Origin: a bacterium
GTDB lineage: Bacteria > RBG-13-61-14 > DATKZS01
Assembly (NCBI GenBank): GCA_963674965.2
Contig: CAXXFL010000007.1
Location: 160,001 to 224,000, forward strand
Reading direction: 5' to 3'
Length of the DNA: 64,000 bases
The notes under the pieces are model-generated. The model did not search any database. It had not been told where the DNA came from and saw only the letters and a program-made list of their open reading frames with translations. Shown here in pieces: positions 23,869 to 41,778 of this stretch; within the stretch, counting starts at the first letter, position 1; every line of letters starts with the position of its first letter. Both the position numbers and the translations under genes were made by a program.

Positions 23869-25038
23869 TTATTCCCGGTTTCTCCGGCCGCGATTATAAA
23901 GTACGTAAAAAAGTAGAACCATAACTAATACTATAAACGCAATAGCGCCAATCCAAACGGTTTGAGATTTTTCATCGCCGGAGCCGCCACCTGAAGGCGG
24001 TTTGGGTGACCGATCCGTTTTTTTATCCGCATCGGGAGACTTCTCATCGTTCCCGCCGGCTTTTTTCAAACCTTCGGGAGTCGGGGTCTTGTCATCAGGT
24101 TTCTGAGAATCGTCGGGCTTATTGTCATCCTTCGATGATCCATCATTTTTTTCCTTTTTTTTAACCACATCGGCCTCTTTGTCTTTCAAGCAGTCATCTA
24201 ATTCACCTACTCGATTTTTGTGACGAGATCGACTGAACCATCCGCCAAAATCAACTTTTTTATTCTTTGACATTGAGGAGGGACTGCCGCGTCTCTCGTC
24301 AACACTCAACGTTATAAATCCTATTTTTTCTCCATCCGCCCACCAGAGCATGTCATTAAACCAGGTTCTAACCCACTCCCTATTAACTTTTCTTTCCTCT
24401 TTTTTTAGGGCCATTTCATAATAAGCGGGGCGATAGCCATAGGATATCCCATCTATTTCCCCCGCCTTGATAAAGTCGAAATTTAGCGTTTCCTCATCCT
24501 TCATTACCCACTCACCATTAACCACAGCCTCATATTCAGGAAGCGTATTAACGAATAACTTATTAGCAAGTTCACTGGCCTTTGATTGGTCAGATGGTAT
24601 GCCCTTGCCATCTTTTCTTGTTATAATAACGGAAATTAAATTATAGCTTTCTACATGATAGATGCGATAATCGAGCATTTCAAAATGAGTACAAATTTTA
24701 TTTACCTGGTCCCATTCAAGAACAAACGTAATATCGTCCGACAGCCAATCCGGTTTAATCCAATGTTTTATCGATCTGCCATTACGGAAACTCTGCAGAT
24801 AACACGCATTTTCAGGAAGTAGGCTTTCAGCCTCAATATAGTCTGGGAATATACAACGAGACGTGATAATATCTTTGCATTGACTCCCGCATCCCCACTC
24901 GTTCTCAAGTATCTCGAAAAGAGCGGGTTTGAATTCTAGTACCATATCCTCGGCATTCGTCGCGCGAGAAAAGGCAATCGAACATAACTGGATAATAAGA
25001 AGCGGATATAACCATTTTCCAATTTTCGGCAATCTCAT
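23869..25038 (-). CDS. AT-rich hypothetical surface protein (signal peptide, K/D/P-rich linker, C-terminal TM anchor)
   Basis: MRLPKIGKWLYPLLII leader; low-complexity linker; VWIGAIAFIVLVMVLLFYVLY followed by a basic tail; visibly lower GC than neighbours. Confidence 0.75.
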   Translation of the reverse strand: MRLPKIGKWLYPLLIIQLCSIAFSRATNAEDMVLEFKPALFEILENEWGCGSQCKDIITSRCIFPDYIEAESLLPENACYLQSFRNGRSIKHWIKPDWLSDDITFVLEWDQVNKICTHFEMLDYRIYHVESYNLISVIITRKDGKGIPSDQSKASELANKLFVNTLPEYEAVVNGEWVMKDEETLNFDFIKAGEIDGISYGYRPAYYEMALKKEERKVNREWVRTWFNDMLWWADGEKIGFITLSVDERRGSPSSMSKNKKVDFGGWFSRSRHKNRVGELDDCLKDKEADVVKKKEKNDGSSKDDNKPDDSQKPDDKTPTPEGLKKAGGNDEKSPDADKKTDRSPKPPSGGGSGDEKSQTVWIGAIAFIVLVMVLLFYVLYNRGRRNRE

Positions 25039-25284
25039 TTTACAATCCCTCATTAAGGCCATTTTTCAGCCCGTGTTGTCCCGTCGTCATCTATTTTCGG
25101 GTTGCCCCCCAGGCAATAAAAAACCTCCATCCCCGGCCTAGTTTCATCTTCTGGAGACAAATATACCCGACCGTGATTGCAGATTCAAGGTAAAGAACGC
25201 CTCCACGCGTTCCTTATTAATGGCGCGGTACCAAACGCCTTTGCGCTTGAATCCCCGGGGATAAAGATATCAATGTGCAAGATG

Positions 25285-25458: not shown

Positions 25459-25560
25459 ACAAAAAAGGGAATCATCCGCTTCGCCCATTACGGATCATCC
25501 ATGGCCGACGTCCCTGAGAACGAGGAGATTCTCGAGATCATCGACCAAATGGAGGATTAG
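25459..25560 (+). pseudogene. C-terminal remnant of an AhpC/TSA peroxiredoxin-like gene
   Basis: KKGIIRFAHYGSSMADVPENEEILEII* resembles the DxxGxIRxxH(Y)G C-terminus of that family. It begins exactly where the repeat cluster ends, and GC content returns to normal there. Confidence 0.55.
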
Positions 25561-25735
25561 GCGGGGCGTCCGTCCGTTATCGGCCCTTAAATAAGTCCTT
25601 AACCGCCTATACCGTCCCTTACCATTTCCCGCCGATTCCCGGGCCGCTTTGCAATTTCCTTCCCCTATGGCATTATTGTAGCCTCATGAACGATCCCCGG
25701 CCGGCGAGTCGATCTCCGGCCGTACGGAGGAGCCG

Positions 25736-26626
25736 ATGATAAGTCAAAACGTGATAATCCAGGACGTGGACGTCGAGCAGTGGCTTAACGTTTTCAAGCT
25801 CGCGGCGGGAAAACTTCCGCCCCGGGAAAAGACCTCGAGGCCCGGGGACGCCGCCGGGAAAAAGAAACGCGGGCGCTCGACGCTCCGGCTCATAGTGGAG
25901 GACGGCCGCTGCCTCAAGGCCTTTCACGGCGAAAAAGGCCCGCTCCGGGATTATAGTCCACTGACGACCGACGACCCCGCGGCCCTGGCCGAGGCCGAGG
26001 GCGTGGGTCGGGTAATCATCATCGAGCGGGGGACCCCCCGGAAAATAATGCACCGCGTACAGTCGGGCCTGACCCTGGACATGAACTTCGGCCAGCAGGC
26101 GCTGCTCATTTACGGCGAGATCAGAAAAGAAATGGGCCAGGGCATCAAAATCCATCCCCGCCCCAAAATGCCCGACGTAAAATACGGCGCCATTAACACG
26201 GCCGTCAAGTTCATGGCCCCTCCCAACGAGCTGATCATGGTCGCGATCTACGACGAAAGCGGCGAAATCAGGGACAGCAGGGGCCTGCCCATCGTCTGGT
26301 CCGGCATCATGAGGCTGGACAAGGACTATAATATCGACCTCCTCAGCACCACCGACAGCCTGGTCTCGGCCGGCCTCAAGGTCTCGGACTGGAAAAAGGA
26401 CTTCGAGTCCATGAACGCGCTGGCCAAAAAGGTCTGGCAATCCAATTTGTTCGCGGCCTACCACCTTCCCCTTACCGCCGTTCCCGAGTTGGTAAAGCGG
26501 GCGAAATCCGGCAATCCCGGCAAAGCCCTGCTCGAGATGAGGAAAGAGAAAAAGATCATCATCGATCCATTCCCCCTTCGTCTCCGGACCCTCCTGAAAA
26601 TGGGCGGGATGATGAAAATAAAATAG
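25736..26626 (+). CDS. Hypothetical cytoplasmic protein
   Basis: 296-aa ORF, SD GGAGGAG, host-like codon usage; no motif recognised. Confidence 0.75.
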   Translation: MISQNVIIQDVDVEQWLNVFKLAAGKLPPREKTSRPGDAAGKKKRGRSTLRLIVEDGRCLKAFHGEKGPLRDYSPLTTDDPAALAEAEGVGRVIIIERGTPRKIMHRVQSGLTLDMNFGQQALLIYGEIRKEMGQGIKIHPRPKMPDVKYGAINTAVKFMAPPNELIMVAIYDESGEIRDSRGLPIVWSGIMRLDKDYNIDLLSTTDSLVSAGLKVSDWKKDFESMNALAKKVWQSNLFAAYHLPLTAVPELVKRAKSGNPGKALLEMRKEKKIIIDPFPLRLRTLLKMGGMMKIK

Positions 26627-26754
26627 GCAAACAATAACGGATGCTTAATCGATCACGGACCCGATCTCGCTCTCCCGATCAAATCCCTGAAGGCCGTCAG
26701 GCATATTATGCATGGCGGTCTTTTATTATCCGCTGAAATCATTATTTTTTTTCC

Positions 26755-26783
26755 TTGAATTCTTTATATCGATCATCTATCTT
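26755..26783 (+). promoter_or_regulatory. Candidate sigma70 promoter for the giant gene
   Basis: TTGAAT-N17-TATCTT preceded by a T-rich UP-like tract. Confidence 0.5.
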
Positions 26784-26940
26784 AACCAAAGCGCGAAAAT
26801 CGTGCCCGCGAGCGAAGGAGCGCCTCTCACGCGACACATGGGAATCATTCCCGATCGAGTAAAATCTTGTCTTTACTCGTCAAGTAAATTTGAGGTAATA
26901 AACGTCTTTTCGAGCCAAGCTTTGTACGGGAGAACGCGTC

Positions 26941-29900
26941 ATGAAAAGAATTTTATCAATCGGTACAACCCTAGCCATCATCCTCCTCGCCATGCTTTCT
27001 TCACCCGCCCGGGCGCAGGACTCCGACGCGGACGGCATGCCCGACGCCTGGGAAAACGCGCATGGATGTCTTCAGGCGGGCACGGCCGACGGCGGAGTGG
27101 ATTACGACTCGGACGGCCTGACCAGCCTGGCCGAGTACCAGTATTCCCCCCAAATGGACCCGTGCTCGGCCGACTCCGACGAGGACGGGAGCGATGACGG
27201 CGACGAGTACTCGTCCGGCTCGAACCCAGCGGACGCCAGGATCGTTCCCGGCTACGTCCGGGAGGGAAGCGAAAAAAGGATCACCTATACCAACTCGGCC
27301 TCTCAGTATCCCTCCCTGCAATGGGCCGATTCCGTGTACGGCCTGTCCTGGACCGACTACTACTCGGGCGTGGCGGAAATCTACCAACGGCGACTCGAGC
27401 TGGATGGGGACACGCTCGGCTACTGGCAGAGAATCTCCTACTACGGCAACGCGGTCCAGTCCAGCCTGGCCTGGTCGGGCTCCGAGTTCGGACTTTCCTG
27501 GAACGATACCGGCGGCGAGATCAAGTTCCTCCGTATCAGCGACGGCGACTCGATAATCGGCTACCCCATAACCGCGGTCATGCATGAGGCGGGCAACGAA
27601 ACTCTTTACCCGGAGCTTGTATGGGCCGACACTCAATACGGCCTGGTCTGGTCTCGCGGTAACGGCCAGTTTCGGCCCATGGGCGCCGACGGCGACACCT
27701 CCTCCTACTCCATCATGGACGTCAGCATCCACGGGGCCCTCAGTCCGCCCTCCATGGTATGGACCGGGTCCGAGTATGGACTGGCCCTGCACGACGACAC
27801 GGGCATAACCTTCCGCCGACTCGATCCCTCGGGAATGGGTCTCAGCATGGCCTACCTGGGCGACTTAGGCCAGAACCCGTCCGCGGCCTGGACCGGCTCC
27901 GAGTTCGGCGTCGTCTGGGACAGGAACGACCTGGACGGACAGGCCGTGTACTTCGCCCGCCTCTCCGCCCAGGGCGCGGTAATCGAGAGCGACATAAGAC
28001 TGACCGATCTCGACCTTTCCTGTTACGACCCTTCCATCGCCTGGAACGGCTCGGTCTACGGCGTGGCCTGGTCCGACTCGGCCATGCCCGCCAACGCGGA
28101 GGTCTATTTCAAAACCATCTCCCTCCAGGGGGAGGACAGGGGAAACGTTTCGGCGGCCTCGACGGGCTTCGACTCGAGCGACTCCCCTACCCTGGCCTGG
28201 AACGGCCACGGCTTCGGGCTGGTCTTCCGGGACCGGCGAGACGCCAATTACGAGATTTACTTCGCGAGCTTCGAGCCCGACGCCGATGGGGACGGACTTA
28301 CCGAGGCCATGGAGTCGGCCCTGGGGACCAGCGCCTCCGACTGGGACAGCGACGGCGACGGCATGGCCGACGGATGGGAATACTACTTCTCCTATTGCGG
28401 CCTTAACGCCAACTCGGTGGACGCCGGCCAGGACCCCGACGGCGACGGCGTGTCGAATATCGACGAACACTCGCTGGGAACCATCCCCTGCGACCCCGAC
28501 ACGGACGACGACATGCTCTGCGACGGCGACACCGGCGTCATGGACGGAGCGACCATCTGCTATCCCGGCGAGGATGTCAACGTCAACGGCGTGATCGATC
28601 CCACCGAGACGGACCCAACCGACCAGGACACGGACGACGACCAGTTGTCCGACTACGAGGAGGTATACTCGCATTCGACCGATCCCCTCGATCCCGACAC
28701 CGACGGCGGCGGCGAACTCGACGGCAAAGAGGTCTTTTTCGCCCGCGACCCCAACGACCCGGCCGACGACTGGGCCGAGATCGACATAGGCGACGGCTCG
28801 GACCTCTGGCATTACCCTCTCGCCGCCTACTACCACGACGCCAGGACCCAGGTCATCTACAAGGCCTCGGAAATCGGGAGGTCGGGAGAGCTTAAGTCCC
28901 TGTCTCTTAACGTGGCGGTCGCGCCGGGAATAATGCTCCAGAACTTCACCGTCCGGGTTAAGCACACTTCCCTCGAGGAGTATCCCGAGACGCCGTCCTG
29001 GGAAGGATGGGACTGGACCACGGTCTATCAGATTAACCAGTACTTCTCGACGGGATGGTACGAAATCTACTTCACCTTCCCTTTCCTTTACAACGGCGTA
29101 GACAACCTTATGATCGACTTCAGCTTCAACAATTCCGAATACGAAACCAACGGCTGGGTCCGGGCCACCAACTCGGGAGACGACCGTTCCCTTTTCTTCC
29201 AGACCGACAGCGGCTACGGCGACCCGCTCATGTGGTCCGACACCGTTTATCCCGTTCCAGGCGTGGAAACCCTCGTGCCCGACGTTAAACTCGTCATCGG
29301 CCCTCCTTCCGACTCCGACGGAGACGGCATGCCCGATTACTGGGAGCGCGTCTACGCGTGCCTCGATTATACCAGCGTCGACGACGAGTCCGACTCCGAT
29401 TACGACGGCCTGACCAACGGCGAGGAATTCGGGGAGTCCACCGACCCCTGCTTCAGCGACACCGATTACGACGGGATTATCGATTACGACGAGGTCTACC
29501 TGTACGGCACCTCCCCCATCAGCCAGGACACGGACGGCGACGGCATGCCCGACGGCTACGAGATATGGGCGGGAGACACCTGCGGGCTCGATCCGACCTA
29601 CGGCGACTCGGCTGAGGACGCCGACTCGGACGGTCTTACCAACCTCGAGGAATACGGCGAGAGCACCGGCGTTTGCGTTCCGGACACCGACGACGACGGA
29701 CTCGAGGACGGAGAGGAGGTTCATACTTACTTCTCCGACCCGCTCAGCTACGACACCGACGGCGACTCGATCGGGGACGGTGACGAAATTCACGTCTACG
29801 GGACCGACCCCAACGACGTGGACTCGGACAACGACTACTTCGATGACGGATACGAGGTCTACTACTCTTTCACGGACCCGGCCGACCCCGACACCGACGG

Positions 29901-32900
29901 CGACGGGCTCGAGGACGGAGAGGAAATGTACTACGCGGCCGATCCCCTCGACCCGGACGTGGACGACGACGGGCTAAGCGACGGCGACGAGATTTTTATC
30001 TGGGACACCGAGCTTTGGGACTGGGACTCGGACGGAGACTCGGTCGGAGACGGGGTCGAGTCGATCCACGGCGCCGACGCCCTCGACTCGGATATTATCC
30101 CGAGCCTTGTCGAGATTGAAGACGACTTCCGAATAAGCTTCAACGGAGCCGTGGGCCTCGCGCCCGACCTGGCGGCCGGAGGAAGCTGGCTCGGCTCGGT
30201 CTGGCAGGACCACCGATACGGAAACGGCGAAATCTATTTCAGGTCCTTCTCCTTCGACGGGGAGACGACCAACCCTACCGTCCGGGTAACCAACGACGCC
30301 GCCGTGAGCCAAGCGCCGGCCATCGCCGCCGACGGCCAGGGGTTCGGACTGGCGTGGATCGACGCGAGGCCCGGCGCGTACCAGACCTATTTCGCCGGCA
30401 TGAGCGAGACGGGGACCAAACTGACGGCAGACGTGAGAATCTCCAGCGGCTCGGGAAACAACTTCGACCCCGACGTGGCCTGGGCCGACTCGGCCTACGC
30501 CGTGGTCTGGGCCGACGGCCGAGGGTCGTCCCTCGAGGTCTACTTCAGGGGAGTCAGCGCCGGAGGCACTTTATTAACCACCGAGATTTCCCTTACGGGA
30601 GGAGACTCGACCGACTCGAAGCAACCCGCCATCGCCTGGACCGGCTCCGAGTTCGGACTGGCCTGGAGCGACCTGCGCGACGGCGGCTCTGAGGAAGTCT
30701 ATTTCGCCCGCGTAAGCCCGAGCGGGACCGTGCTCACCCAAACGAGGATCACCAACATGTGGGGCCCCAGTATAAAGCCCGATCTGGCCTGGGGAGACTC
30801 GTCCTTTGGACTGGTATGGTCCGAATTCGGCGCGGGCGGCAACCAGATAATGTTCCAGCGCGTGACCCAGGTGGGAGACACCATCGGCCCGGCCAGATCG
30901 ATTTCCAGGGAATTCAGCTCCAAGTATACTCCCCGTATTTCATGGGACGGCTATACCTTCGGCGTGACATGGGAGGACCAGAGATACGGAAGCGGCGAGA
31001 TATACGCCATTGCCCTCATCGAGCAGGGATTGCCCGTTTGCGATGAAACCAGAATAACTCACGACATGTACGCCAGCCAGGAGCCGGCCATCGCCTTTGG
31101 AGGAAGCTGGTTCACCGTGGCCTGGGTCGACGCTCGGGACGGGGACAGTCAAATCTACGCCACTCGATTCGACCTGGACCTGGACGGAGACGGCATGGCC
31201 GGACTGGAAGAGATAGAAATTGCCACCGATCCCCTCGACTGGGACTCCGACGACGACGGCATAGGCGACCTCGAGGAAACCGTCTCCGGCGACGACGGCT
31301 ACGTTACCGACCCGCTCGATCCCGACACCGACGACGGAGGGGAGACCGACGGAGACGAGGTCGCGGGCGGCCGAGACCCGCTCGATCCCCTCGACGACGT
31401 GGTCTTGATCCCTCCCATCGGGACCGGCACCGCGAGCTGGTACTATCCGCTCGCCTCCGGATATTACAAGGCCCGCACCCAAACCATTTACTACGCCGAG
31501 GAAATCGGACGATCGGGCAACATCCAAACCCTGTCCCTCAACGTGACCTGGGTACCCGGATCGACCCTTTCCAACTTCACTATCCGCATGAAACACACCG
31601 AGGACTCGGCCTACGCCGAGGAGGACGGCTTCGACCCCTCCGGCTGGCAGACCGTGTTCCAGGATGACGTGACGATATCTCTCGAGGGATGGAACCGCTT
31701 CATCTTCGACTCCGACTTCGCCTACAATGGGTCAGACAATCTTATGGTCGACGTCAGCTTCTCCAATTCCCTGTACTCCGACGACGGCTACGTAAAGACC
31801 TCGAGGGGAGACCAGTACCGAACCGTCTACGCCAGGTGCGACTTCTGCGCGGGCGAGCCCACCGAGTGGGGCGTGTCTCTTTTGCCCGAGCCCAACCGCT
31901 CCAGGAACTATCCCAATATAATGCTCGGCATATCGCTTCCCACCGACGACGACGGCGACGGCCTCCCGAACTTCTGGGAGGACAATTACGCCTGCATGCA
32001 GGGATCGACGCCCGATGAGGGACAGGACCACGACTCCGACCTCCTGACCAACCTCCAGGAATATCAGAACCAGACCGACCCCTGCGAGACGGACACCGAC
32101 TCCGACGACATGGACGACTACTTCGAGGTGGTCAACGCCTGTCTCGATCCCCGCGTCGGCGACTCCCTTTTGGACCCGGACTCCGATGGGCTGGCCAACC
32201 TGGACGAGATGGACAACTCACTCGATCCCTGCGATCCCGACACCGACTCCGACGGCATGACCGACGGCTGGGAGGTCGAGTACGACGCCTGCCTCGATCC
32301 CGCCTCGGGGGACTCCCTCCAAAACCCCGACGGAGATGGGGCCAATAATATCAGCGAGTTCAACAACTCGACCGATCCATGCCTCGACGACGACTCGGAT
32401 GGCGACGGCATGACCGACGCCTGGGAAAACTCCTATTCCTGCATGATGGCCAACACCGTCGATACCAACCCCGACTACGACGGCGAGGGACTCGTGAACC
32501 ACGACGAGTTCCTCTACTCCACCAACCCCTGCAACGTCGACACCGACTCCGACCAGCTTAACGACCTCATGGAGATATTCGTCTACGGCAGCAACCCCAA
32601 CGACGTGGACACCGAGGGCGACGGGCTGATCGACCGCCTCGAGGTACTGACCTACAACTGCGATCCCACCGACGAGGACACCGACGACGACGGGTTGAGC
32701 GACGCCTTCGAGGTCGGAGTCGTCGTCGGCGTGGGCTTCAATGGCGCGCTTAACACCGCCGCCGGAAACGACGACGTTATCCACGATCTGGCCGTCTGGC
32801 TCGGCGCCGATTTATGGCCCGGCACCACCGCCGCGGGGGACGACCTCCAGGTGATTCCCCGCTTCCTTCCCTACCCGAGGCTGTTCATTACCGATCCCGA

Positions 32901-35900
32901 CGACCCCGACACCGACGGCGACGGGCACGACGACCTCGCCGAGCTGTCGGCCGGGGCCAACCCGCTCGATCCCGATATCCTGCCCTCCCCTCTCGCCTGG
33001 GGTGGGGACACGGCCGTCAACCTATCCGACTACTTCATGGGAGACGGCCACTCCGTCTCCATCGCCTGGGCCGACGAATTCTACGGGGTGGCCTGGTGCA
33101 GGGACAATTCTTACTCCGGCGTCTGCGACTCCATCGAGTTCGCCGTGAAAAGCCTGCTCGGCGACTCCATCACGCCTCCCTTTACCTTGCCCACCTCCAG
33201 CTTCGCCTCGAGCCCGTCCATCGCCTGGACCGGCTCCGAGTTCGGCGTCGCCTGGTGTGAGGACAGCGACTGGGATTGGGTCTGCGACGGAGTGTACTTC
33301 GGCAGGATCGACCACGAAACCATGGCCATGGTGGGATCGACCCTGCCCATCGCGCCCTCCGACATGGTACCCAGTGAGCACCCCGACCTGGTTTGGACCG
33401 GCTCCGAGTTCGCCGTCACCTGGCATGACTTGGCAGACGATAACGACTGGTCCTGCGACCTGTGGACCGGAAGCACCGACTGCAATTACGAGGTGTATTT
33501 CACCAGAATCAGCGAATCGGGAGAAACCGTCTCCGCCCCCGTGAGAATAACCAACCAGCAGAGCATGAGCCTGTACCCGGACCTCCTGTTTAACCAGGAC
33601 TTGAACGAGTACGCCCTGGCCTGGGAGGACATGAAACTCGACGCCAACGACTGGTGCGAGATGGTGTGGGAATCCTCAGACTGCAACGGGGAGATATTCT
33701 TCACCAGGCTCACCGCCGGTGGGACCGTCATTGGACAGGAACAGAGAATCTCGCGCAGTCCCGGCTACAGCCAACACGCGTCCCTCGCCTGGACCGGGAC
33801 CGAGTACGGCCTCGCCTGGTGCGAGGACGACGAGGGCATGGGAGGAGGATGCGACGACGTTTACTTCTCCAGGATTTCCTCCCAGGGCGCCCCCGTCTCC
33901 GAGATCGTCCAGGTAACCTATAGCGAGGGCAAAACCTTCGCCCCCGACCTCGCCTGGATCGTGGACGGGTTCTGGATCGCCTACAGCGAGGACACCACCG
34001 AGTCATGGTACGGAGACGCCATTTACGTTGACGTGCTCACTCCCGAGGGAGACGAAACGGAATACCATCTCGAGCTTGCCGACGACGGAATGATGGCCTC
34101 GGAGTTTCCCGCCATCGCCGGAAACGACGTGGGAGCGGCCATCGCCTGGGAGGACGCCCGAGACGGCGACGTCGGAATACTTTTCTACCTCGTTAGCCGC
34201 GACGGAGACGGCGATGGACTGCCCGACGTCGTCGAGATGACCATGTGCGCCGATCAATTCAACCATGACACCGACGGCGACGGAATACTGGACGGGATCG
34301 AGGACGCGAACCTTAACGGCGTGGTCGATTCACCCGATGAAACCGATCCGTGCGATCCCGACACCGACGGCGACGGACTTTCCGACGGGATCGAGGACTC
34401 GGACCACGACGGGGTGGTGGACTCGAACGAAACCGATCCCACTCTCGCCGACACCGACGGCGATGGACTCTGCGACGGCTCGACCTCGGCCCCGGGCTGC
34501 GCCGCCGGAGAGGACTTGAACGGAAACGGAGTCGTCGACCAGGGAGAAACCGATCCATGCGACGCGGACTCCGACGGCGACGGAGTTAACGACGGAGATG
34601 AAACGTCCGCCGGGTCCAACCCCCTCGACGAGGACGTCGTCATGGGCTTCTCCGGCAAAGTGGGCGGAGACGTGCGCGTCACCTCCACCGCCGACGACTC
34701 ATGGGCCCCGTCCGTCGCATGGACGGGGTCCGAGTACGGACTGGCCTGGGAGGAGGACGTCGACGACTATTCCGAGATTTTCTTCCTTCGCCTATCGCCA
34801 CTGGGACAAAATATCGGCCTGAAGAAAAGGATCACCACGACTACCGATATCAGCTACAGCCCCAGCATTATGTGGACGGGCTCAGAGTTCGGACTGGCCT
34901 GGACCGACGGCCGCGACGGCAACTTCGAGGTTTATTTCAGCCGGGTCTCGGCCGCGGGAGTCAAAACCCTAGCCGATAAGAGAATCACCTATAACGATAC
35001 CGACGCCATACAACCGGTACTGGCCTGGACCGGGTCGGAATATGGACTGTCATGGATCGATGGCAACCAGGCCACGCCCATGGCCTGCTTTAGAAGGATC
35101 GCCCTTAATGGCGACACCGTGGCCCCCGAGGAAATTATAAGCTCAGGCGGCTCCGACATGTACTACCCGGACCTTGTCTGGGCCGAGTCCGTCTTCGCCA
35201 TGGCCTGGCAGGAAAACTACGGCGTAAGGTTTACCAGACTCGCCGCCGACGGATCGACCCTCCAGCCTTCATATAGCGTCTACTCCATGAATGGAAACGA
35301 CGGCGACCCGGCCCTCGCCTGGACCGGACAAAATTTCGGGACCGTCTGGGAAAATCGAGGGTCCATGGACGAGGAAATTTATTTCGCCCTGATCGGAGCG
35401 TCCGGCGACACGACAATCGGCTACGAGACCAGGGTCACCAACGCTCCCGAGATCAGCGTCACGCCGGCCATAGCCTGGAACGGATTCGAGTTCGGACTCT
35501 CATGGGAGGACTGGCGGGAAGGATTGAGCGATATTTACTTCACCAGGATCAGCGGCGACGGCGAGGAGATAGACGACGAGTTCTACCTATCAAGCGGAGG
35601 GGCCGACTCACACGACTCGAAAATCGTCTGGACCGGTTCGGAATACGGCGTCTTCTGGGCCGACTATCGGGACGAAAACTTCGAGATTTATTTCGCCAGG
35701 GTCGGGTTCGATTTCGACGGCGACGGCATACCCGATGGACTTGAAAGCCAGTTTTCCACCTCCCCCAACGATTGGGATACCGACGGAGACGGACTGGCGG
35801 ACGGCCTCGAGCTTTGCTACGACGAGGTCTGCCTCGCCTTCTCCTCCACACTCGATCCCAATCCAACCGTGATCGACACCGACGGAGACGGACTCACCGA

Positions 35901-38900
35901 TTACGAGGAGGTCATGGTACACTTTTCCAACCCGGCCAAAGCCGACACCGACGACGACGGCATGCCGGACAAGTGGGAAGTTGACAATAACCTAACCCCC
36001 ATCGCGGCCAACGCCAACGGCAATCCCGACAAGGACGGCCTGACCAACATTCAGGAATATCTGGCTGGCTCGAACCCAAATTCCGCCGACACCGACTCCG
36101 ACGGCATGCCCGACGGTTGGGAGGTTATCGATCACCCCTGCATGCATCCGACCGTTGACGACAGAAACATGGATTACGACAGGGACGGAATACTTAACCT
36201 GGACGAGTACAATCAAGGCAGGGACCCATGCGTGGTCGAGACCTTGCCCTCATCAACCTGCTCTTCAACCGTGTCCCTTACCAGCGCCGATACCGTCATG
36301 CTCACGTTTACCTCATCGGACAAGTACGCCGAGGTCAAGCTTAAAGTATCTTTCAATGGAGGGCCCTATCTATCCACTGGCCTTTCCGACTCCGACACCA
36401 CAAAGGGAAGCTTCGTTTATACCTTCAATAAAGGAAACGGAGTCTATCGTTTCCATACCATAGCCTCGCTTTCCCTGGTCCTGATTGAGGAACCTCCCGA
36501 GAGTCCGGACTATGACGCGCAAATAACCCTTGATGGATCGGCTCCCAATTCATACGTCAGTTATGCCCCGGCTTTCGTGCCCGATCATTTATTTTCGGTT
36601 CAATTCGCCTGTAATGACGAAAGCGCAGAGACCCGCCTTTATTACCGCAAGGACGGCGGGGGGTGGATGGACTCGGGTCTGGGGCTGTTGGCGGGGGACT
36701 CGGGGACTTTCAGCTTCACGCCGGCGGGCGAGGGGACTTACGATTTTTATACCATCGCCGGCGACCCGGCGGGGAACATCGAGGACCCGCCCACCTTCCC
36801 CGACAAGGACGCCACCACCGTGGTCGACGACTCGCCGCCCGCCGTTCCGGTCGTGACCGACGACGGGACTTACACGGGTTACACCGACCGCTTCCACGCG
36901 ACGTGGACGTGCGGGGGCGACAGCGTTTCGGGCGTTGTCCAGTATGACTACGCGATCGGTTCGTCGGCGGGGGCGACGGACGTGGTGGGGTGGACGGACA
37001 ACGCGACGCTGACGGAGGTGACCAGGTTCGGGCTCGAGCTCGAGGACGGGTCGAGTTACTTTATCGGGGTGAGGGCGGTTAACGGAGCGGGGCTGATGAG
37101 CGTGGGGTGGTCCGATGGGATACTCGTCGACTCGAGGGGGCCGGAGATCGCCTGGTCGTCGCCGGCGCATCGGGAGATCGTGAACGACGACATGCCGCCC
37201 GTGGATTTGCCGGTCAGTATAAACTTCATCGACCCGGGCGGGGCGGGGATCGACTGGTCGAGCCTCGAGATGGTGCTCGACTTCAGCACCGTGCAGAGCT
37301 TCAGCCAGGACGGGGACACGGTGAGCTTCGACGCGCTGGCCCTCGACCTGGGCAACCACGTGGTGAACGTGCAGGTCGCGGACCTGGCGGGGAACGGTCT
37401 TAACCGGAACGTCATCTTCGTGGTCGAGGACCCGCGGCGGGTGATAATCAATCCGGTATACGTGGAATGGGCCCCGGGCGACGGGGACGTGACCTTCGTG
37501 GCCGACGGCGGCACCGGCGCGTACCGGTGGGCGGCGACTGGCGGGGCGCTCGATTCCTTCACCGGGACCGAGGTTGTCTTCACGCCGGGCCCCGAGGCGG
37601 GGGCCTACGTGGTGGCGGTTTCTGACGCCAAGCTGGTGAGCGCGCAGGCGACGATAATTATTTCTGGCGAGGTCGAGGTGGCCCCGGCGGTGGTCCGCCT
37701 GAGCGCGGGCTCGGCGGCGACCTTCACCGCCTCGGGCGGTAGCGGCGACTTCAGTTGGACGGTCAACGGCGGCTCTTGCGTATTGTCGGGCGACCGTGAT
37801 GAAACGTGTTCGTATACGGCCTTCGAGTCGAGCGGGCAGTACTCGGTGAAGGCGCAGGCGGGCTCGGGCGAGAGCTTCACCAGCCGCGTGATCGTCACCG
37901 ATCCGGTGGGCCGGGCCATCGTGGTGGTGGGCGGCGGCCTGGTGGACTCGAACCGTCAGGTCGAGGCTCTGAACTCCCTTGGCCACCTCGCCTACGAGAC
38001 CCTTTTGGCTCGCGGCTTCGAGCCGGACCAGATCATGTACCTCAATCCCGACGCGACCCAGGCCTACGACGGCGACGGCGACGGCTACGCCGACGACGTG
38101 GACGGCGCTCCCACCCCGGCCGCTCTGCAGGCGGCCATCCTGGATTGGGCCACCGCCGACCTGGGGGTGGACAACCCGGGCGTGGGTCCGGGCGTGCCTT
38201 TAATAATTTATATGGTCGATCACGGGGGCGACGACTCGTTCCTCATCAACTTCACGGCCGCGGGCGCTGGCCAGGAGGTGACCCCCACCCAGCTCGACTC
38301 GTGGATCGACGCGGTGCAGGGGGGCGACACCTCGAACCCGAACGGGGTAGACGTGGTGGTGATTTACGACGCCTGCCGGTCGGGCAGCTTCCTGGACGAG
38401 GTGGGCGGCGGCGGTTCCGACCGTATCGTGATCACCAGCTCGGCGTCCTCGGAGAGCGCATACTTTGGCGTATCGGGCACGATCAGCTTCAGCCAGTTTT
38501 TCTGGCAGCGGGTCCGGACGGGCGCCACTCTCAAGTCGGCCTTCAACGACGCGGCGGCGGCGCTGGCCACCTGGGCCACGCAGACGCCGTGGCTGGACGA
38601 CAACGGGAGCGGGACTTACGCGGCCACCGGCGACGGCAAGGACGGCGACGCGGCGGACCTTTTCGTGGTGGGCGCGGACTTCGTTACCGGCGCGGTGCTT
38701 CCCGAGCTGACACCTCGCGGCGACGCGCTGCTCGAGGGCGACAGCCTGGATATTTACTCGGGCATACTTTACGCCAGCTCGAGCGAGATATCGGCCATGT
38801 TCGCCATTTTGACGCCGCCTGGCTTCTCACCTCCCCAGTCGGAGGGCAACTTCGACACGCCCTGGCTGGAGGACGAGGAGGGCAATCCCCTGCCTCGCGT

Positions 38901-41730
38901 TTACCTCGAGTACTCGAGCGCGACGGACGACTGGCGGCGTCGGCTGGACTCGGCCGAGCTGGCCGAGCTGTTCACGGTCAACGGCCGATATACTGCCACG
39001 TTATACGCGATCGATCTCGAGGGCCGGGTGACGGCGGCGGCGGAGTTCTCGATCACGGTGTTCGGCCCGGACCCTTACGAGGACGACGACTGGTGGAGCT
39101 CCGGCTCGAGCGTCGAGGTTAACTCGAGCTCGGCGCAGGCCCACAACTTCCACGACTCGGGCGACCGTGACTGGGTGAAGTTCTCCGTGGCCTTTGGGGA
39201 CACGGGATATTACTCTGTGTATACGGAGAACCTGGCGGACCGCTGCGACACGGTGATCGAGCTTTACGGCTACTCGGTGGCCGGCTCGACGGTGGTCCCC
39301 ATCGCGTTCGACGACGACTCGGGCCAGGACGGCGGCGGCTCGAGCCGTATTTTCATGTACCTGTCCGAGGGTCTTTATTACGCTGAAGTATATCAATACG
39401 GCGACACCATCGGGGGCCAGGACACGGAGTACGACCTCCGGGTGGACCACGACGAGGGCGACTACGGCTCGGTCGAGGGCTACGTGACGGACTCGGTGAC
39501 GGGCTTCGGGGTGCAGGGCGCGAACGTGATCGTGATCCTTGGCGGTCCTCCCCGCGTGGCCACCACCGGGGCGGGCGGCTATTACAAGCTCTCGAGCCTC
39601 CTGGCCGGCTCTGGATATCCCATGCAGGTGCAGGCGGCGAACTTCACCACCTGGTCGGGGACGGTGAACGTTGGCGTGAACCAGACCACCAGGAAGGACG
39701 TGGTGCTGGCGGCGAAGACCGGCACCTCGGGCGTGCTGATGGGCCACGTTTACGGTCACGGCGGCGCGCCGCTGGTGGGGGTCGGGCTCGAGGTCTCGGG
39801 CAAGTCCGTGGTGAGCGAGGCGGGCGGCCTTTACTCGATCCGTCTTGCTCCCGGAGCGGCCTACGTTTATTCGAGCTGGCCGGGCTACGAGCCGTACCTC
39901 GAGGAGGGGCTAATGGTTGTGGCCGGCGATACCACGGTGCATGAGGTGTCGCTCGAGCCGGTGGACACCGACGGCGACGGCCTTCCGGACTGGATCGAGA
40001 CCTCGGGCTGCACTGACGAGTCCGAGGCGGACTCGGACGGCGACGGCTTATGCGACGGCGATACCGCGGTGTATGACGGCGCGACTCTCGTCTGCTCGGC
40101 GGGCGAGGACCTCGATCTTGACGGCGAGGTCGGGGCCTCGGAGACCGACCCTTGCGACGACGACTCGGACGGCGACCTCCTCGGCGACGGCGACGAGGCG
40201 CTGACTTACGGCACGGACCCGCTCGAGGTTGACACGGACTCGGACGGCCTCGGCGACCGCCTCGAGGCGGTGGTCGTAAGCTGCCTCGATCCGACTGACG
40301 ACGACACGGACGACGACGGCCTTCTGGACGGAACGTCGAGCGGCGAGGACAAGGACGGCGACGGGGTTGTTGACGCGACGGAGACGAGCCCTTGCCTTTT
40401 CGATACGGACACGGATACGCTGGGCGACGGCGCGGAGGTGACGGTATACGGCACGGACCCGCTCGAGGTTGACACGGACTCGGACGGCCTGAGCGACGGG
40501 CTCGAGGTACCCTGGTGCACGTCGCCCACGGACGAGGACAGCGACGGTGACGGGCTTCTGGACGGCACGCCGAGCGGGGAGGACAAGGACGGCGACGGCG
40601 TGGTGGACGCGACCGAGACCAACCCCTGCGCCTTTGACAGCGACTCGGACGGCATCGGCGACGGGCTCGAGCTTGGGACTTACGGCACCAACCCGCTTAG
40701 GCAGGATACTGATTCGGATGGGATCGGCGACTACGTCGAGGCGGTCTCGAGCGCCTGTCTCGACGCTACGGAGGCGGACACCGACGGCGACGGCCTTCTC
40801 GACGGGACCATATTCGGTGAGGACAAGGACGGCGACGGCGTGGTGGACCCGGGCGAGACCAACCCCTGCCTCGAGGACAGCGACGAGGACGGGCTCGGTG
40901 ACGACGAGGAGCCGGGGCTGGGCCTGGATCCCCTCGAGTGGGACACGGACGGCGACGCTCTTCCCGACGGCTACGAGGTGGCGAACTCGAGCGGCCATGC
41001 CTTGAACCTCGATCCGCTCGACCCGGGCGACGGCTGCGCGTCTGACTTTGACGGCGACGGCAACGCCAACTGCCACGAGTATTACAACGGCACGGACATT
41101 TGGTCGGAGAACGTGACGGGCGGCTCGGCCTGCTTCAGCTGGGCGGACTCGGGGAGCACGGTCAGCGCCGACGGCCTGGTTTCGCCTCTGGACCTCGGCG
41201 CCTTGAACGCCCGCGCGTCGCTGAAGGACGCGTCCTACACGGGCGTGCTCCCACCCAACGGCGACTCGCAGGAACTCGATATGGACGAGATTATCTCGGC
41301 GCTCGACCTGGCGGTCCTGCGCCAGATGGTTGCCAACCTCTCCACCTCCGGCAACCCCAGCCGTCCGGTCGCCCTCGAGGTTTACGGCGACACGGCGGTC
41401 ACGGCCGAGGTGGGAAGCACGGTGCGGATCGAGCTGGGCGCCCTCAACCAGGGCGGCAAGCACACATCGAGCCTGGGGATCATCTTCACCATCGACCCCT
41501 CCTCGACCGCCTCGGCCACCCTCCTCGGCGGCGACGGCGCGGCCTCGAGCGGCCGCTACGACGTGACCGGCCCCATCGCCACCGGCGGCCGCTCCGCCAT
41601 CGTCCTCCTCCCCACCGCCCCCGGCTCCCTCCTCCTCAACGCCCACCTCCCCCCATGCGGCGTTGACGGAAAAGGCCGCTACTGCGAAGAGCTGATCAAA
41701 CAGCCCCTGGTGACGGTGACGGTGGAGTAG
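26941..41730 (+). CDS. Giant secreted multidomain protein (4,929 aa): Ca-binding DxDxDG repeats, 4 beta-propeller-like modules, Ig/Fn3-like domains, C13/caspase-fold peptidase, PPC-like and carboxypeptidase-regulatory-like domains, dockerin-like C-terminus
   Basis: Uninterrupted ORF; signal peptide ending ARA; dozens of D(S/T)DGDG(L/M)xD repeats; WTGSEFGxxW repeats; IYMVDHGG...VIYDACRSGSF dyad. Confidence 0.93.
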   Translation: MKRILSIGTTLAIILLAMLSSPARAQDSDADGMPDAWENAHGCLQAGTADGGVDYDSDGLTSLAEYQYSPQMDPCSADSDEDGSDDGDEYSSGSNPADARIVPGYVREGSEKRITYTNSASQYPSLQWADSVYGLSWTDYYSGVAEIYQRRLELDGDTLGYWQRISYYGNAVQSSLAWSGSEFGLSWNDTGGEIKFLRISDGDSIIGYPITAVMHEAGNETLYPELVWADTQYGLVWSRGNGQFRPMGADGDTSSYSIMDVSIHGALSPPSMVWTGSEYGLALHDDTGITFRRLDPSGMGLSMAYLGDLGQNPSAAWTGSEFGVVWDRNDLDGQAVYFARLSAQGAVIESDIRLTDLDLSCYDPSIAWNGSVYGVAWSDSAMPANAEVYFKTISLQGEDRGNVSAASTGFDSSDSPTLAWNGHGFGLVFRDRRDANYEIYFASFEPDADGDGLTEAMESALGTSASDWDSDGDGMADGWEYYFSYCGLNANSVDAGQDPDGDGVSNIDEHSLGTIPCDPDTDDDMLCDGDTGVMDGATICYPGEDVNVNGVIDPTETDPTDQDTDDDQLSDYEEVYSHSTDPLDPDTDGGGELDGKEVFFARDPNDPADDWAEIDIGDGSDLWHYPLAAYYHDARTQVIYKASEIGRSGELKSLSLNVAVAPGIMLQNFTVRVKHTSLEEYPETPSWEGWDWTTVYQINQYFSTGWYEIYFTFPFLYNGVDNLMIDFSFNNSEYETNGWVRATNSGDDRSLFFQTDSGYGDPLMWSDTVYPVPGVETLVPDVKLVIGPPSDSDGDGMPDYWERVYACLDYTSVDDESDSDYDGLTNGEEFGESTDPCFSDTDYDGIIDYDEVYLYGTSPISQDTDGDGMPDGYEIWAGDTCGLDPTYGDSAEDADSDGLTNLEEYGESTGVCVPDTDDDGLEDGEEVHTYFSDPLSYDTDGDSIGDGDEIHVYGTDPNDVDSDNDYFDDGYEVYYSFTDPADPDTDGDGLEDGEEMYYAADPLDPDVDDDGLSDGDEIFIWDTELWDWDSDGDSVGDGVESIHGADALDSDIIPSLVEIEDDFRISFNGAVGLAPDLAAGGSWLGSVWQDHRYGNGEIYFRSFSFDGETTNPTVRVTNDAAVSQAPAIAADGQGFGLAWIDARPGAYQTYFAGMSETGTKLTADVRISSGSGNNFDPDVAWADSAYAVVWADGRGSSLEVYFRGVSAGGTLLTTEISLTGGDSTDSKQPAIAWTGSEFGLAWSDLRDGGSEEVYFARVSPSGTVLTQTRITNMWGPSIKPDLAWGDSSFGLVWSEFGAGGNQIMFQRVTQVGDTIGPARSISREFSSKYTPRISWDGYTFGVTWEDQRYGSGEIYAIALIEQGLPVCDETRITHDMYASQEPAIAFGGSWFTVAWVDARDGDSQIYATRFDLDLDGDGMAGLEEIEIATDPLDWDSDDDGIGDLEETVSGDDGYVTDPLDPDTDDGGETDGDEVAGGRDPLDPLDDVVLIPPIGTGTASWYYPLASGYYKARTQTIYYAEEIGRSGNIQTLSLNVTWVPGSTLSNFTIRMKHTEDSAYAEEDGFDPSGWQTVFQDDVTISLEGWNRFIFDSDFAYNGSDNLMVDVSFSNSLYSDDGYVKTSRGDQYRTVYARCDFCAGEPTEWGVSLLPEPNRSRNYPNIMLGISLPTDDDGDGLPNFWEDNYACMQGSTPDEGQDHDSDLLTNLQEYQNQTDPCETDTDSDDMDDYFEVVNACLDPRVGDSLLDPDSDGLANLDEMDNSLDPCDPDTDSDGMTDGWEVEYDACLDPASGDSLQNPDGDGANNISEFNNSTDPCLDDDSDGDGMTDAWENSYSCMMANTVDTNPDYDGEGLVNHDEFLYSTNPCNVDTDSDQLNDLMEIFVYGSNPNDVDTEGDGLIDRLEVLTYNCDPTDEDTDDDGLSDAFEVGVVVGVGFNGALNTAAGNDDVIHDLAVWLGADLWPGTTAAGDDLQVIPRFLPYPRLFITDPDDPDTDGDGHDDLAELSAGANPLDPDILPSPLAWGGDTAVNLSDYFMGDGHSVSIAWADEFYGVAWCRDNSYSGVCDSIEFAVKSLLGDSITPPFTLPTSSFASSPSIAWTGSEFGVAWCEDSDWDWVCDGVYFGRIDHETMAMVGSTLPIAPSDMVPSEHPDLVWTGSEFAVTWHDLADDNDWSCDLWTGSTDCNYEVYFTRISESGETVSAPVRITNQQSMSLYPDLLFNQDLNEYALAWEDMKLDANDWCEMVWESSDCNGEIFFTRLTAGGTVIGQEQRISRSPGYSQHASLAWTGTEYGLAWCEDDEGMGGGCDDVYFSRISSQGAPVSEIVQVTYSEGKTFAPDLAWIVDGFWIAYSEDTTESWYGDAIYVDVLTPEGDETEYHLELADDGMMASEFPAIAGNDVGAAIAWEDARDGDVGILFYLVSRDGDGDGLPDVVEMTMCADQFNHDTDGDGILDGIEDANLNGVVDSPDETDPCDPDTDGDGLSDGIEDSDHDGVVDSNETDPTLADTDGDGLCDGSTSAPGCAAGEDLNGNGVVDQGETDPCDADSDGDGVNDGDETSAGSNPLDEDVVMGFSGKVGGDVRVTSTADDSWAPSVAWTGSEYGLAWEEDVDDYSEIFFLRLSPLGQNIGLKKRITTTTDISYSPSIMWTGSEFGLAWTDGRDGNFEVYFSRVSAAGVKTLADKRITYNDTDAIQPVLAWTGSEYGLSWIDGNQATPMACFRRIALNGDTVAPEEIISSGGSDMYYPDLVWAESVFAMAWQENYGVRFTRLAADGSTLQPSYSVYSMNGNDGDPALAWTGQNFGTVWENRGSMDEEIYFALIGASGDTTIGYETRVTNAPEISVTPAIAWNGFEFGLSWEDWREGLSDIYFTRISGDGEEIDDEFYLSSGGADSHDSKIVWTGSEYGVFWADYRDENFEIYFARVGFDFDGDGIPDGLESQFSTSPNDWDTDGDGLADGLELCYDEVCLAFSSTLDPNPTVIDTDGDGLTDYEEVMVHFSNPAKADTDDDGMPDKWEVDNNLTPIAANANGNPDKDGLTNIQEYLAGSNPNSADTDSDGMPDGWEVIDHPCMHPTVDDRNMDYDRDGILNLDEYNQGRDPCVVETLPSSTCSSTVSLTSADTVMLTFTSSDKYAEVKLKVSFNGGPYLSTGLSDSDTTKGSFVYTFNKGNGVYRFHTIASLSLVLIEEPPESPDYDAQITLDGSAPNSYVSYAPAFVPDHLFSVQFACNDESAETRLYYRKDGGGWMDSGLGLLAGDSGTFSFTPAGEGTYDFYTIAGDPAGNIEDPPTFPDKDATTVVDDSPPAVPVVTDDGTYTGYTDRFHATWTCGGDSVSGVVQYDYAIGSSAGATDVVGWTDNATLTEVTRFGLELEDGSSYFIGVRAVNGAGLMSVGWSDGILVDSRGPEIAWSSPAHREIVNDDMPPVDLPVSINFIDPGGAGIDWSSLEMVLDFSTVQSFSQDGDTVSFDALALDLGNHVVNVQVADLAGNGLNRNVIFVVEDPRRVIINPVYVEWAPGDGDVTFVADGGTGAYRWAATGGALDSFTGTEVVFTPGPEAGAYVVAVSDAKLVSAQATIIISGEVEVAPAVVRLSAGSAATFTASGGSGDFSWTVNGGSCVLSGDRDETCSYTAFESSGQYSVKAQAGSGESFTSRVIVTDPVGRAIVVVGGGLVDSNRQVEALNSLGHLAYETLLARGFEPDQIMYLNPDATQAYDGDGDGYADDVDGAPTPAALQAAILDWATADLGVDNPGVGPGVPLIIYMVDHGGDDSFLINFTAAGAGQEVTPTQLDSWIDAVQGGDTSNPNGVDVVVIYDACRSGSFLDEVGGGGSDRIVITSSASSESAYFGVSGTISFSQFFWQRVRTGATLKSAFNDAAAALATWATQTPWLDDNGSGTYAATGDGKDGDAADLFVVGADFVTGAVLPELTPRGDALLEGDSLDIYSGILYASSSEISAMFAILTPPGFSPPQSEGNFDTPWLEDEEGNPLPRVYLEYSSATDDWRRRLDSAELAELFTVNGRYTATLYAIDLEGRVTAAAEFSITVFGPDPYEDDDWWSSGSSVEVNSSSAQAHNFHDSGDRDWVKFSVAFGDTGYYSVYTENLADRCDTVIELYGYSVAGSTVVPIAFDDDSGQDGGGSSRIFMYLSEGLYYAEVYQYGDTIGGQDTEYDLRVDHDEGDYGSVEGYVTDSVTGFGVQGANVIVILGGPPRVATTGAGGYYKLSSLLAGSGYPMQVQAANFTTWSGTVNVGVNQTTRKDVVLAAKTGTSGVLMGHVYGHGGAPLVGVGLEVSGKSVVSEAGGLYSIRLAPGAAYVYSSWPGYEPYLEEGLMVVAGDTTVHEVSLEPVDTDGDGLPDWIETSGCTDESEADSDGDGLCDGDTAVYDGATLVCSAGEDLDLDGEVGASETDPCDDDSDGDLLGDGDEALTYGTDPLEVDTDSDGLGDRLEAVVVSCLDPTDDDTDDDGLLDGTSSGEDKDGDGVVDATETSPCLFDTDTDTLGDGAEVTVYGTDPLEVDTDSDGLSDGLEVPWCTSPTDEDSDGDGLLDGTPSGEDKDGDGVVDATETNPCAFDSDSDGIGDGLELGTYGTNPLRQDTDSDGIGDYVEAVSSACLDATEADTDGDGLLDGTIFGEDKDGDGVVDPGETNPCLEDSDEDGLGDDEEPGLGLDPLEWDTDGDALPDGYEVANSSGHALNLDPLDPGDGCASDFDGDGNANCHEYYNGTDIWSENVTGGSACFSWADSGSTVSADGLVSPLDLGALNARASLKDASYTGVLPPNGDSQELDMDEIISALDLAVLRQMVANLSTSGNPSRPVALEVYGDTAVTAEVGSTVRIELGALNQGGKHTSSLGIIFTIDPSSTASATLLGGDGAASSGRYDVTGPIATGGRSAIVLLPTAPGSLLLNAHLPPCGVDGKGRYCEELIKQPLVTVTVE

Positions 41731-41745
41731 AGGAGAATTATTTTT

Positions 41746-41778
41746 GCCCCAGCCGATCCAATGGAATTCGGCTGGGGC
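41746..41778. terminator. Hairpin between convergent genes (probable terminator)
   Basis: GCCCCAGCCGA-N11-TCGGCTGGGGC with AT-rich flanks. Confidence 0.7.

Follow-up and report, generated by a model that had tools for sequence, protein, structure and literature searches.

A giant, probably secreted protein of an RBG-13-61-14 bacterium and the dockerin-type tail family to which it belongs

In the clostridial cellulosome (PDB 1daq, 1g1k, 2vn5), secreted modular enzymes bear a terminal dockerin that pairs with a cohesin; according to PMC5748583, dockerin specificity is determined at positions 10, 11, 17, 18 and 22, with species-specific residues at 10 and 11. Cohesin-dockerin assemblies that dock peptidases have already been proposed in other phyla. 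The 'Planctosome' of freshwater Nemodlikiaceae, a genome-based proposal outlined in PMC6461901, combines cohesin-dockerin docking of peptidases in a diderm with single-cohesin proteins that carry TSP3 repeats and an adaptor bearing both cohesin and dockerin, and dockerin-tailed peptidases are described from the uncultured diderm 'Ca. Stygibacter' of the Cloacimonadota (PMC8542988). Furthermore, non-cellulosomal pairs have been proposed to serve adhesion or partner recognition in anaerobic methanotrophic (ANME) archaea and their sulfate-reducing partners, deltaproteobacterial lineages included (PMC9012536, PMC10553843), and a role in attachment has been proposed for the giant proteins of Omnitrophota, whose very long chains are built of TSP3 repeats and dockerin motifs (bioRxiv 10.1101/2023.11.21.568195). 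Here we describe a variant of this kind, found in a 64,000-nucleotide stretch of a bacterial contig (CAXXFL010000007.1, assembly GCA_963674965.2; hereafter the window) in which a single open reading frame (ORF) at 26941-41730 encodes a probably secreted protein of 4,929 amino acids (aa) with calcium-binding repeats, four beta-propellers, a peptidase and a dockerin-type tail.

We put at about 0.5 the probability that this protein, an adhesin and protease in one, leaves the cell by type II secretion and docks by its tail on a cohesin hub of its own genome. The original prediction treated the ORF as a stand-alone protein. It instead shares a near-identical 3' cassette with five paralogues and is one of 30 tail-bearing ORFs in its genome (label G000; 6.5 Mb in seven contigs, 97.6% complete), and the system of interest is this genome-wide tail family, not the 4,929-aa ORF alone.

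The tail family and its genome-specific residues

41116..41727, plus strand: tail module (aa 4726-4929, 204 residues), a dockerin-type double EF-hand followed by an immunoglobulin (Ig)-like beta-sandwich
41185..41190, plus strand: positions 10-11 of dockerin loop 1 (Pro4749-Leu4750), genome-specific code
41299..41304, plus strand: positions 10-11 of dockerin loop 2 (Ala4787-Leu4788), genome-specific code

The tail had been read from the letters as dockerin-like followed by Ig-like, and both halves of that reading hold. A profile of 46 tail sequences matches solved cellulosomal dockerins (8x39, E 1.3e-6; 1daq, E 8.6e-4), aligning the 's-p-l-D' of the tail with their positions 9-12, and the second half is an Ig-like sandwich for which Foldseek on the tail returned generic Ig-like matches. 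The duplicated calcium-binding loop and helix of dockerins, typically with Asp or Asn at positions 1, 3, 5, 9 and 12, are both present, as two loop-helix repeats with Asp12 invariant in each, and the Atlas neighbours of the tail are Dockerin_1 clusters (0.83-0.85; a lead only). The module is divergent: loop 2 has Glu at position 1 and Ser at position 9, Pfam Dockerin_1 misses the copy in the 4,929-aa protein and exceeds its cut-off for one copy in the genome, and a PDB sequence search with an 18-row tail profile was blank or uninformative.

Within G000 the module ends 26 of the 30 ORFs, stands just after the signal peptide in two, is interrupted by a propeller in one and is a fragment in the last; with a broader profile, a further protein is found that has two divergent copies. 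A hydrophobic N-terminus is found in 28 of the 30, which together make up 3% of the genome. Eleven encode a recognisable peptidase (eight C13, one each of C25, C1 and M6) and eight carry LVIVD propeller repeats; relatives add S8 peptidases. The family is narrowly distributed, with tails in nine of ten genomes of the same order, in neither of two from the class's other order and in none of 28 outside, and in 178 of 1.84 billion representative proteins. Among the best 150 matches, 137 are C-terminal, six N-terminal and seven internal. A pattern scan gave as its sole species-genome match a contig titled Deltaproteobacteria bacterium RBG_13_61_14; RBG-13-61-14 is in use as a phylum name (PMC13170169).

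Positions 10 and 11 of both loops carry a two-residue code that follows the genome. We aligned 42 modules from 10 genomes over 136 columns, taking 13 of the 30 from G000, picked for diversity, and, from the loci retrieved in relatives, every one of the 29 distinct modules that include a dockerin half (one 39-residue contig-end piece was excluded). Ranked by how far they track genome over subtype, positions 10 and 11 of the two loops occupy ranks 1-4 of 136; positions 20, 22 and 14 come next, with loop 2 position 22 in sixth place, and 17 and 18 are unranked. Of the determinant positions of cellulosomal dockerins, 10, 11 and 22 show species-specific residues here and 17 and 18 do not rank. The code is PL in G000, SG in G002 and G004, GS in G003 (one subtype only), VP in G007 and PD in G001. 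In G000, loop 1 reads PL in every one of the 29 modules that include a dockerin half, and loop 2 reads PL in 20, AL in eight and SL in one.

Between subtypes of one genome, identity at the four code columns is 0.66, versus 0.31 at the other columns. With shuffled genome labels the mean falls to 0.18 and none of 2,000 shuffles reached 0.66, a contrast that overstates significance because the genomes are kin, with several same-genus pairs, and the pattern was seen before testing. A tree groups the modules by subtype across genomes. Clade support is high for two subtypes (the type with an inserted PD40 propeller, from four genomes, 100/96; 18 of 20 C-terminal modules, 98/93) and weaker (93/88) for the third, the N-terminal subtype, also from four genomes. 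Gene conversion cannot easily explain the code because the same two residues occur in modules just 22-24% identical. Judging from the sequences, selection to bind one shared partner can account for it, and such a partner probably drives it. Each of the five genomes that have a single cohesin locus (G000, G002, G003, G004, G007) shows a uniform code; the code is mixed in the family with two to four cohesins.

Several members of the tail family present features of their own. Two paralogues (L002:4751-10960, minus strand; L001:3913-9591, plus strand) have an N-terminal tail module followed by long Cys-rich repeats; glycosyltransferase genes follow the former, the latter is split into two same-frame ORFs, and G001 has a similar gene with similar neighbours. 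These are candidates for a glycosylated surface or S-layer-like protein. At L003:2234-7336, as in relatives P0126, P0145 and P0151, a PD40 propeller is apparently inserted in the Ig half, and the G000 copy has the M6 peptidase. A class of ~370-490-aa tail proteins (P0030, P0043, P0052, P0063, P0072, P0087 and L082:9043-10509) shares an 'MSS.SY.I' type motif after the signal peptide; a scan of P0030 gave no annotation. Finally, a 615-aa secreted protein (G000 C3:434437-436284) has two divergent dockerin-Ig modules with differing residues at positions 10-11, possibly a second specificity class or a cross-linker.

Cohesin hubs, outer-membrane barrel and export

A 12-sequence cohesin profile matches solved type I cohesins (1g1k, E 4e-5) and, searched against G000, finds exactly two cohesins, at the N-termini of tandem hub genes of 1,922 and 2,046 aa. 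The two domains are encoded at G000 C4:283378-283818 and 289208-289654. By eye, the cohesin of each hub is followed by another dockerin-like module, whose residues differ, then by Ig and beta-sandwich domains, CarboxypepD_reg, calcium repeats and a PL tail. The hub is no multi-cohesin scaffoldin; each one-cohesin hub with its own tail would hold one client or chain hub-to-hub. We infer that the hub cohesin is the partner of the tail. A complex prediction of the hub-1 cohesin with the tail and two calcium ions gave a median of 0.07 (runs 0.42, 0.00 and 0.07; mark 0.32) and weighs neither way.

Directly upstream of the G000 hubs lies a gene for a FadL/TodX-family outer-membrane barrel (PF03349). 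Of 13 genomes from the class, 12 have cohesins (the G008 match lying under the cut-off) and 11 have the barrel; in those 11, the barrel gene is directly upstream of the hub in six and one gene away in one. This gene order makes the barrel a candidate for holding the hub on the outer membrane. Its profile matches BamG and PorV besides TbuX/CymD/TodX, with TbuX and CymD slightly better, and the FadL homologues PorV and BamG bind surface proteins through loops, as reported in PMC12578637.

Two further genes, labelled by eye, often accompany the locus: one encodes a conserved secreted protein of ~720 aa and the other is cyclase- or CHAT-like. The secreted protein adjoins the barrel-hub locus in several relatives and stands apart from it in G000, where it follows sigma-factor-like, anti-sigma-like and cyclase/CHAT-like genes, again named by eye (C1:1442976-1450319, minus strand). 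Further barrels of the same FadL subfamily are found at G000 C6:1111109-1112626 and C6:1209482-1210828, each beside a secreted or lipoprotein-like gene.

The export route, described as unclear in the original prediction, now has a plausible candidate in a Sec signal combined with a type II system. G000 encodes the type II secretin GspD (474 bits against a cut-off of 351), flanked by genes that by eye are GspC, E, F and G in a gsp-like cluster; a second secretin lies in a cluster read by eye as pilMNOPQ. Having both a Sec signal and a type II system in its genome, the 4,929-aa protein is probably exported by that route. Two other routes were considered and set aside. For type IX, this 97.6% complete genome gave no PorV match and just a 60-position fragment of SprA (17 bits against a cut-off of 200). 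For type I export of RTX adhesins, the protein has a signal peptide and no RTX family match, and TIGR01843 (HlyD adaptor) had no match over its cut-off.

Taken together, the chain would cross the inner membrane by Sec, fold with calcium and disulfides, and exit by type II secretion. Its tail would then dock on the genome's own hub cohesin at the cell surface, the hub being held by the barrel or chained to further hubs. Attachment to a surface or particle at a distance would fall to the variable propellers and sandwiches, and cleavage of protein close to the cell to the constant peptidase. A wider scheme, which we advance only tentatively, is an outer-membrane display system dedicated to this task in the whole bacterial class and independent of type IX: a FadL-family barrel would hold a single-cohesin hub, hubs would chain by their tails, and dozens of giant adhesins and proteases would dock via a two-residue code that is reset from genome to genome. 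That code would keep enzymes on the producing cells and exclude relatives, and conversion would keep the protease-plus-dock cassette constant behind interchangeable heads. Of the surface fibre with binding and proteolysis first proposed for this ORF, the calcium scaffold, the folds of binding type, the intact clan CD peptidase and the dockerin-type tail are supported; its stand-alone, routeless character is not.

Several observations weigh against docking on a cohesin hub. The main one is G001 (97% complete, 90 contigs), in which three modules share the PD code and neither cohesin nor barrel was found. The barrel stands apart from the hub in G011, and contig ends hide the gene order in G006, G010 and G012. 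Four genomes of one family (G006, G008, G009, G010) have no code common to their subtypes, and one G007 module (L029) departs from VP. The hub has no membrane segment beyond its signal peptide, and two cohesins for ~30 tails cannot form a cellulosome-style scaffold. As for the tail itself, loop 1 has a four-residue insertion, and its structure model places helices after both loops, but with low confidence in the dockerin half (predicted local distance difference test, pLDDT, mostly <50). Moreover, 19 of the 30 tail ORFs have no recognisable peptidase, so that this is not simply a protease complex. Lastly, passage of a protein of this size through the secretin is an assumption.

Architecture of the giant and alternative readings

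26941..41730, plus strand: whole ORF, 4,929 aa, acidic (D+E 19%, K+R 4%), 65 Cys
26941..27015, plus strand: Sec-type signal peptide, cleavage after A-R-A (aa 25) predicted by eye; hydropathy
27259..28275 (aa 107-445), plus strand: beta-propeller 1, seven-bladed with ~51-aa blades (local profile, model)
28777..29310 (aa 613-790), plus strand: domain A, an unnamed beta-sandwich (local profile, model)
30112..31173 (aa 1058-1411), plus strand: beta-propeller 2 (local profile)
31408..31944 (aa 1490-1668), plus strand: domain A', 41% identical to domain A
33007..34263 (aa 2023-2441), plus strand: beta-propeller 3, with Cys-containing insertions (local profile)
34657..35706 (aa 2573-2922), plus strand: beta-propeller 4 (local profile)
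36238..37881 (~aa 3100-3647), plus strand: Ig/Fn3-like stack, weak Pfam matches only
36820..41738, plus strand: 4.9-kb 3' cassette common to five other G000 genes, the match ending 5-8 nucleotides (nt) past the stop
37882..38700, plus strand: C13 (legumain-like, clan CD) peptidase, His3761 codon at 38221 and Cys3812 codon at 38374
39469..39960, plus strand: two carboxypeptidase-regulatory-like domains
39961..41115, plus strand: last DxDxDG calcium-binding (TSP3-like) repeat block
41746..41778, plus strand: 11-bp GC-rich inverted repeat after the stop codon, a possible terminator by sequence

Most of the layout proposed from the letters is borne out. The frame is single and begins with a Sec-type signal peptide, the sole strong hydrophobic stretch by hydropathy; a weaker 19-aa window (1.69) lies in the first strand of the peptidase domain, and a scan of the whole chain found no C-terminal anchor, in keeping with the claimed lack of a transmembrane segment. 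The RTX motif said to be missing is likewise absent from the protein scan, with zero RTX family matches, and family scans of the window genes saw neither secretion nor partner genes among the neighbours, the former again as claimed. Local profiles agree with the coordinates given at the outset for four propellers, all seven-bladed, and two copies of domain A. The calcium-repeat scaffold is evident in 62 DxDxDG motifs, whose blocks lie between all upstream domains and make up ~35% of the chain, with TSP3_bac at its cut-off (24.7 bits against 25); these linkers are probably stiffened by calcium. CarboxypepD_reg was found twice, in accord with the two regulatory-like domains. The Ig/Fn3-like stack has weak Pfam matches in its favour and none that is strong, and Pfam on the protein gave no confirmation of a PPC-like label.

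In an AlphaFold2 model of aa 104-790, covering propeller 1 and domain A only, both a propeller and a beta-sandwich are predicted with confidence (mean pLDDT 87). Its closest solved structures are beta-propellers at 8-12% identity, the propeller having dominated the structure search. Domain A has neither a Pfam match nor a PDB sequence match and resembles unnamed Atlas clusters. Orthology to CglD or MtsD was rejected, the NCBIfam matches being below cut-off and located on the calcium repeats. The terminator scan by consensus found none and did not call the 11-bp inverted repeat past the stop codon. Upstream of the giant, a 296-aa ORF has no paralogue. A 397-aa ORF (window 23869-25062, minus strand) has no family match, a low-complexity linker, a C-terminal membrane segment and a basic tail; it lies in a lower-GC stretch (47% GC at 24-26 kb) and has one paralogue, at C6:1164458.

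The clan CD peptidase is likewise upheld. Peptidase_C13 matches the excised domain with 25.7 bits (cut-off 22.8), and the catalytic motifs IIYMVDHGG (His-Gly) and VVVIYDACRSG (Ala-Cys) each follow a hydrophobic strand. Among 71 homologues, drawn from a search restricted to 532-2,000-aa proteins and 8,000 candidates, His3761 is kept in 68 and Cys3812 in 70. A single-sequence PDB search with the peptidase alone found no clan CD relative, and a profile built from whole homologues was dominated by their NHL propellers. The domain is present in eight G000 genes and in genes of two of 12 relatives. Proteins combining a propeller, C13 and CarboxypepD_reg are common in other lineages, where the same peptidase ends in interchangeable short or domain-sized tails, plain dockerins among them. 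Several such tails are probably sorting or anchoring tags; this suggests that the dockerin-Ig tail fills an anchor slot.

We take the peptidase probably to act on outside substrates. It is possible, with the protein docked all the same, that C13 instead acts on its own chain or on neighbours, releasing or maturing the front, or ligating it; ligase and transamidase activities occur in family C13. This alternative, compatible with either docking route, is one we consider tentative at best. The domain sits at a fixed place, between variable head and anchor, in all eight carriers and is identical or nearly so in six genes despite their different heads, as self-processing would have it, but the peptidases found in other tail carriers belong to typical degradative types (C25, C1 and M6, with S8 in relatives) and most adhesin-like carriers are without C13.

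Somewhat doubtful, in our estimation, is that the tail is a genome-coded binding tag with a partner other than the hub cohesin, be it a FadL-family barrel (as PorV is for type IX cargo), another surface receptor, or itself, binding into a matrix. The concerted code needs just one shared partner or self-binding; G001 is coded with no cohesin detected; and both the loop-mediated binding reported for PorV and BamG in PMC12578637 and the match of our barrel profile to these two speak for it. So does the last beta-strand of the tail, which forms the C-terminal end in 80 of 92 non-self proteins of at least 350 aa. The coded columns, however, are the classical cohesin-contact positions, and G001 is also without the barrel. 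A strict C-terminal sorting signal is contradicted by the N-terminal copies (two in G000, six of the best 150 matches).

The 3' cassette bears on a further alternative. Its nucleotide identity to the other copies is 98-99% for four genes and 93% for the fifth, over a longer 6-kb match. The six fronts differ, with other propellers, a C-type lectin and unnamed domains, so that the cassette inverts the polymorphic-toxin layout: here the catalytic end is constant and the front variable. The last 4,800 nt of the six copies contain 177 variable sites, 132 of them at third codon positions; of the 152 codons that vary, 115 do so synonymously. Measured over 84 informative sites, four-gamete incompatibility is 2% within 50 nt and climbs to 62% at distances above 1.5 kb, which, going by these sequences, is the pattern expected from patchwork gene conversion. 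With paralogues so strongly homogenised and cohesins so few, perhaps the proteins are released as free or matrix-bound calcium-rich fibres and the tail is a vestigial calcium-binding cap that duplication and conversion have multiplied; according to PMC9012536, dockerins outside cellulosomes are widespread where no scaffoldin is present. We judge this improbable: homogenisation cannot account for a residue pair common to subtypes that are only 22-24% identical to the tail of the ORF and that group by subtype in the tree.

That the length or domain order of the ORF is an assembly artefact across repeats is very improbable: short-read contigs leave three breaks in the unique part and the six-copy cassette unbridged, but they tile the unique part without mismatch, their depth ratio is consistent with six copies, most differences between copies are at third codon positions, a mis-join within the cassette, which runs to the stop codon, would leave the architecture unchanged, and a same-order genome carries similarly built frames of 4,155 and 4,768 aa. 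Specifically, four contigs, from runs that may be the assembly's own sample, cover 25,536-36,698 with overlaps of just 26-29 nt, and the three breaks coincide with 30-mers repeated in the genome. In run X1, contig depth is ~17-24 over the unique part and ~100-108 over the shared 3' part, an increase of about five-fold, as six cassette copies predict.

Elsewhere in G000, three 3,255-3,323-aa proteins (C6:881384-891355, C2:70140-80060, C6:748616-758383) are 62-77% identical over ~3,050 aa. Their C-termini are unrelated to one another, and by eye one of them closes with an HNH-like motif. Near these genes lie arrays of related ~580-aa and ~240-aa ORFs, and the arrangement looks like a polymorphic toxin system with spare cassettes.

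Comparison with described systems

The literature searched, largely at title and abstract level, with few subscription journals and without supplements, which may hold domain tables, gave no report of the dockerin-Ig tail, the concerted code switch, the barrel-hub locus, the converted cassette or the lineage's surface proteins, and no functional study of bacterial propeller, C13 and CarboxypepD_reg proteins. Among the latter, Desulfonema limicola 'Peptidase C13 domain-containing protein, NHL repeat-containing' and its kin have the same peptidase subfamily, at 28-43% identity for most matches. As in our ORF, C13 in such proteins often follows a propeller and precedes CarboxypepD_reg and a terminal tag; they differ in having NHL propellers, other tails and, in many cases, a second, degenerate C13 copy.

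The G000 system works like a simple non-cellulosomal cohesin-dockerin system, not a cellulosome. It shares with the clostridial cellulosome a homologous dockerin and cohesin, a terminal dockerin on secreted modular enzymes and species-specific positions 10-11. Unlike the cellulosome, it belongs to a Gram-negative host, fuses its dockerin to a trailing Ig domain and has no multi-cohesin scaffoldin, the genome's two cohesins being one per protein. Its cargo is peptidases and propellers rather than glycoside hydrolases (none was found in the 4,929-aa protein or in 28 other tail ORFs scanned whole), and its hub has no visible S-layer-homology or sortase anchor.

The diderm proposals are nearer, with differences of their own. 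PMC6461901 describes M12B/M14 metallopeptidases and a lamin-tail anchor for the 'Planctosome', whereas G000 has C13, C25, C1 and M6 peptidases, giant clients and a FadL-barrel locus; a recognition-code test is not among the content that paper reports in the part available. The 'Ca. Stygibacter' peptidases are S8 and C25, and PMC8542988 describes a tandem-cohesin scaffoldin with a C-terminal sorting domain, in contrast to single-cohesin hubs and no type IX markers here. ANME cohesin proteins have up to five cohesins each, and the accessible parts of PMC9012536 and PMC10553843 do not report a dockerin-Ig tail, barrel locus or converted cassette. The Omnitrophota giants, with type II-like loci near their genes, reach at least 30,000 aa and have C-terminal membrane and SecA-like regions (bioRxiv 10.1101/2023.11.21.568195), compared with 4,929 aa, one terminal dockerin and no membrane segment in our protein. 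PorV and BamG, of the same family as the G000 barrel, offer a docking precedent (PMC12578637), but the G000 barrel is slightly nearer TbuX/CymD and is a candidate for docking by gene order only.

Gram-negative cohesin-dockerin peptidase assemblies have thus been proposed from domain lists, without evidence of selection for binding. In G000 and its relatives, tail subtypes of three separate lines of descent changed identical contact positions in concert within each of several genomes, and at the sequence level this is evidence for a single shared partner. The small natural cognate and non-cognate pairs (PL, SG, GS, VP) can be tested without culturing the organism and possibly include new orthogonal pairs for designer scaffolds. 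Likewise, the barrel-hub gene pair provides a testable answer to how such assemblies could be held on an outer membrane without type IX secretion.

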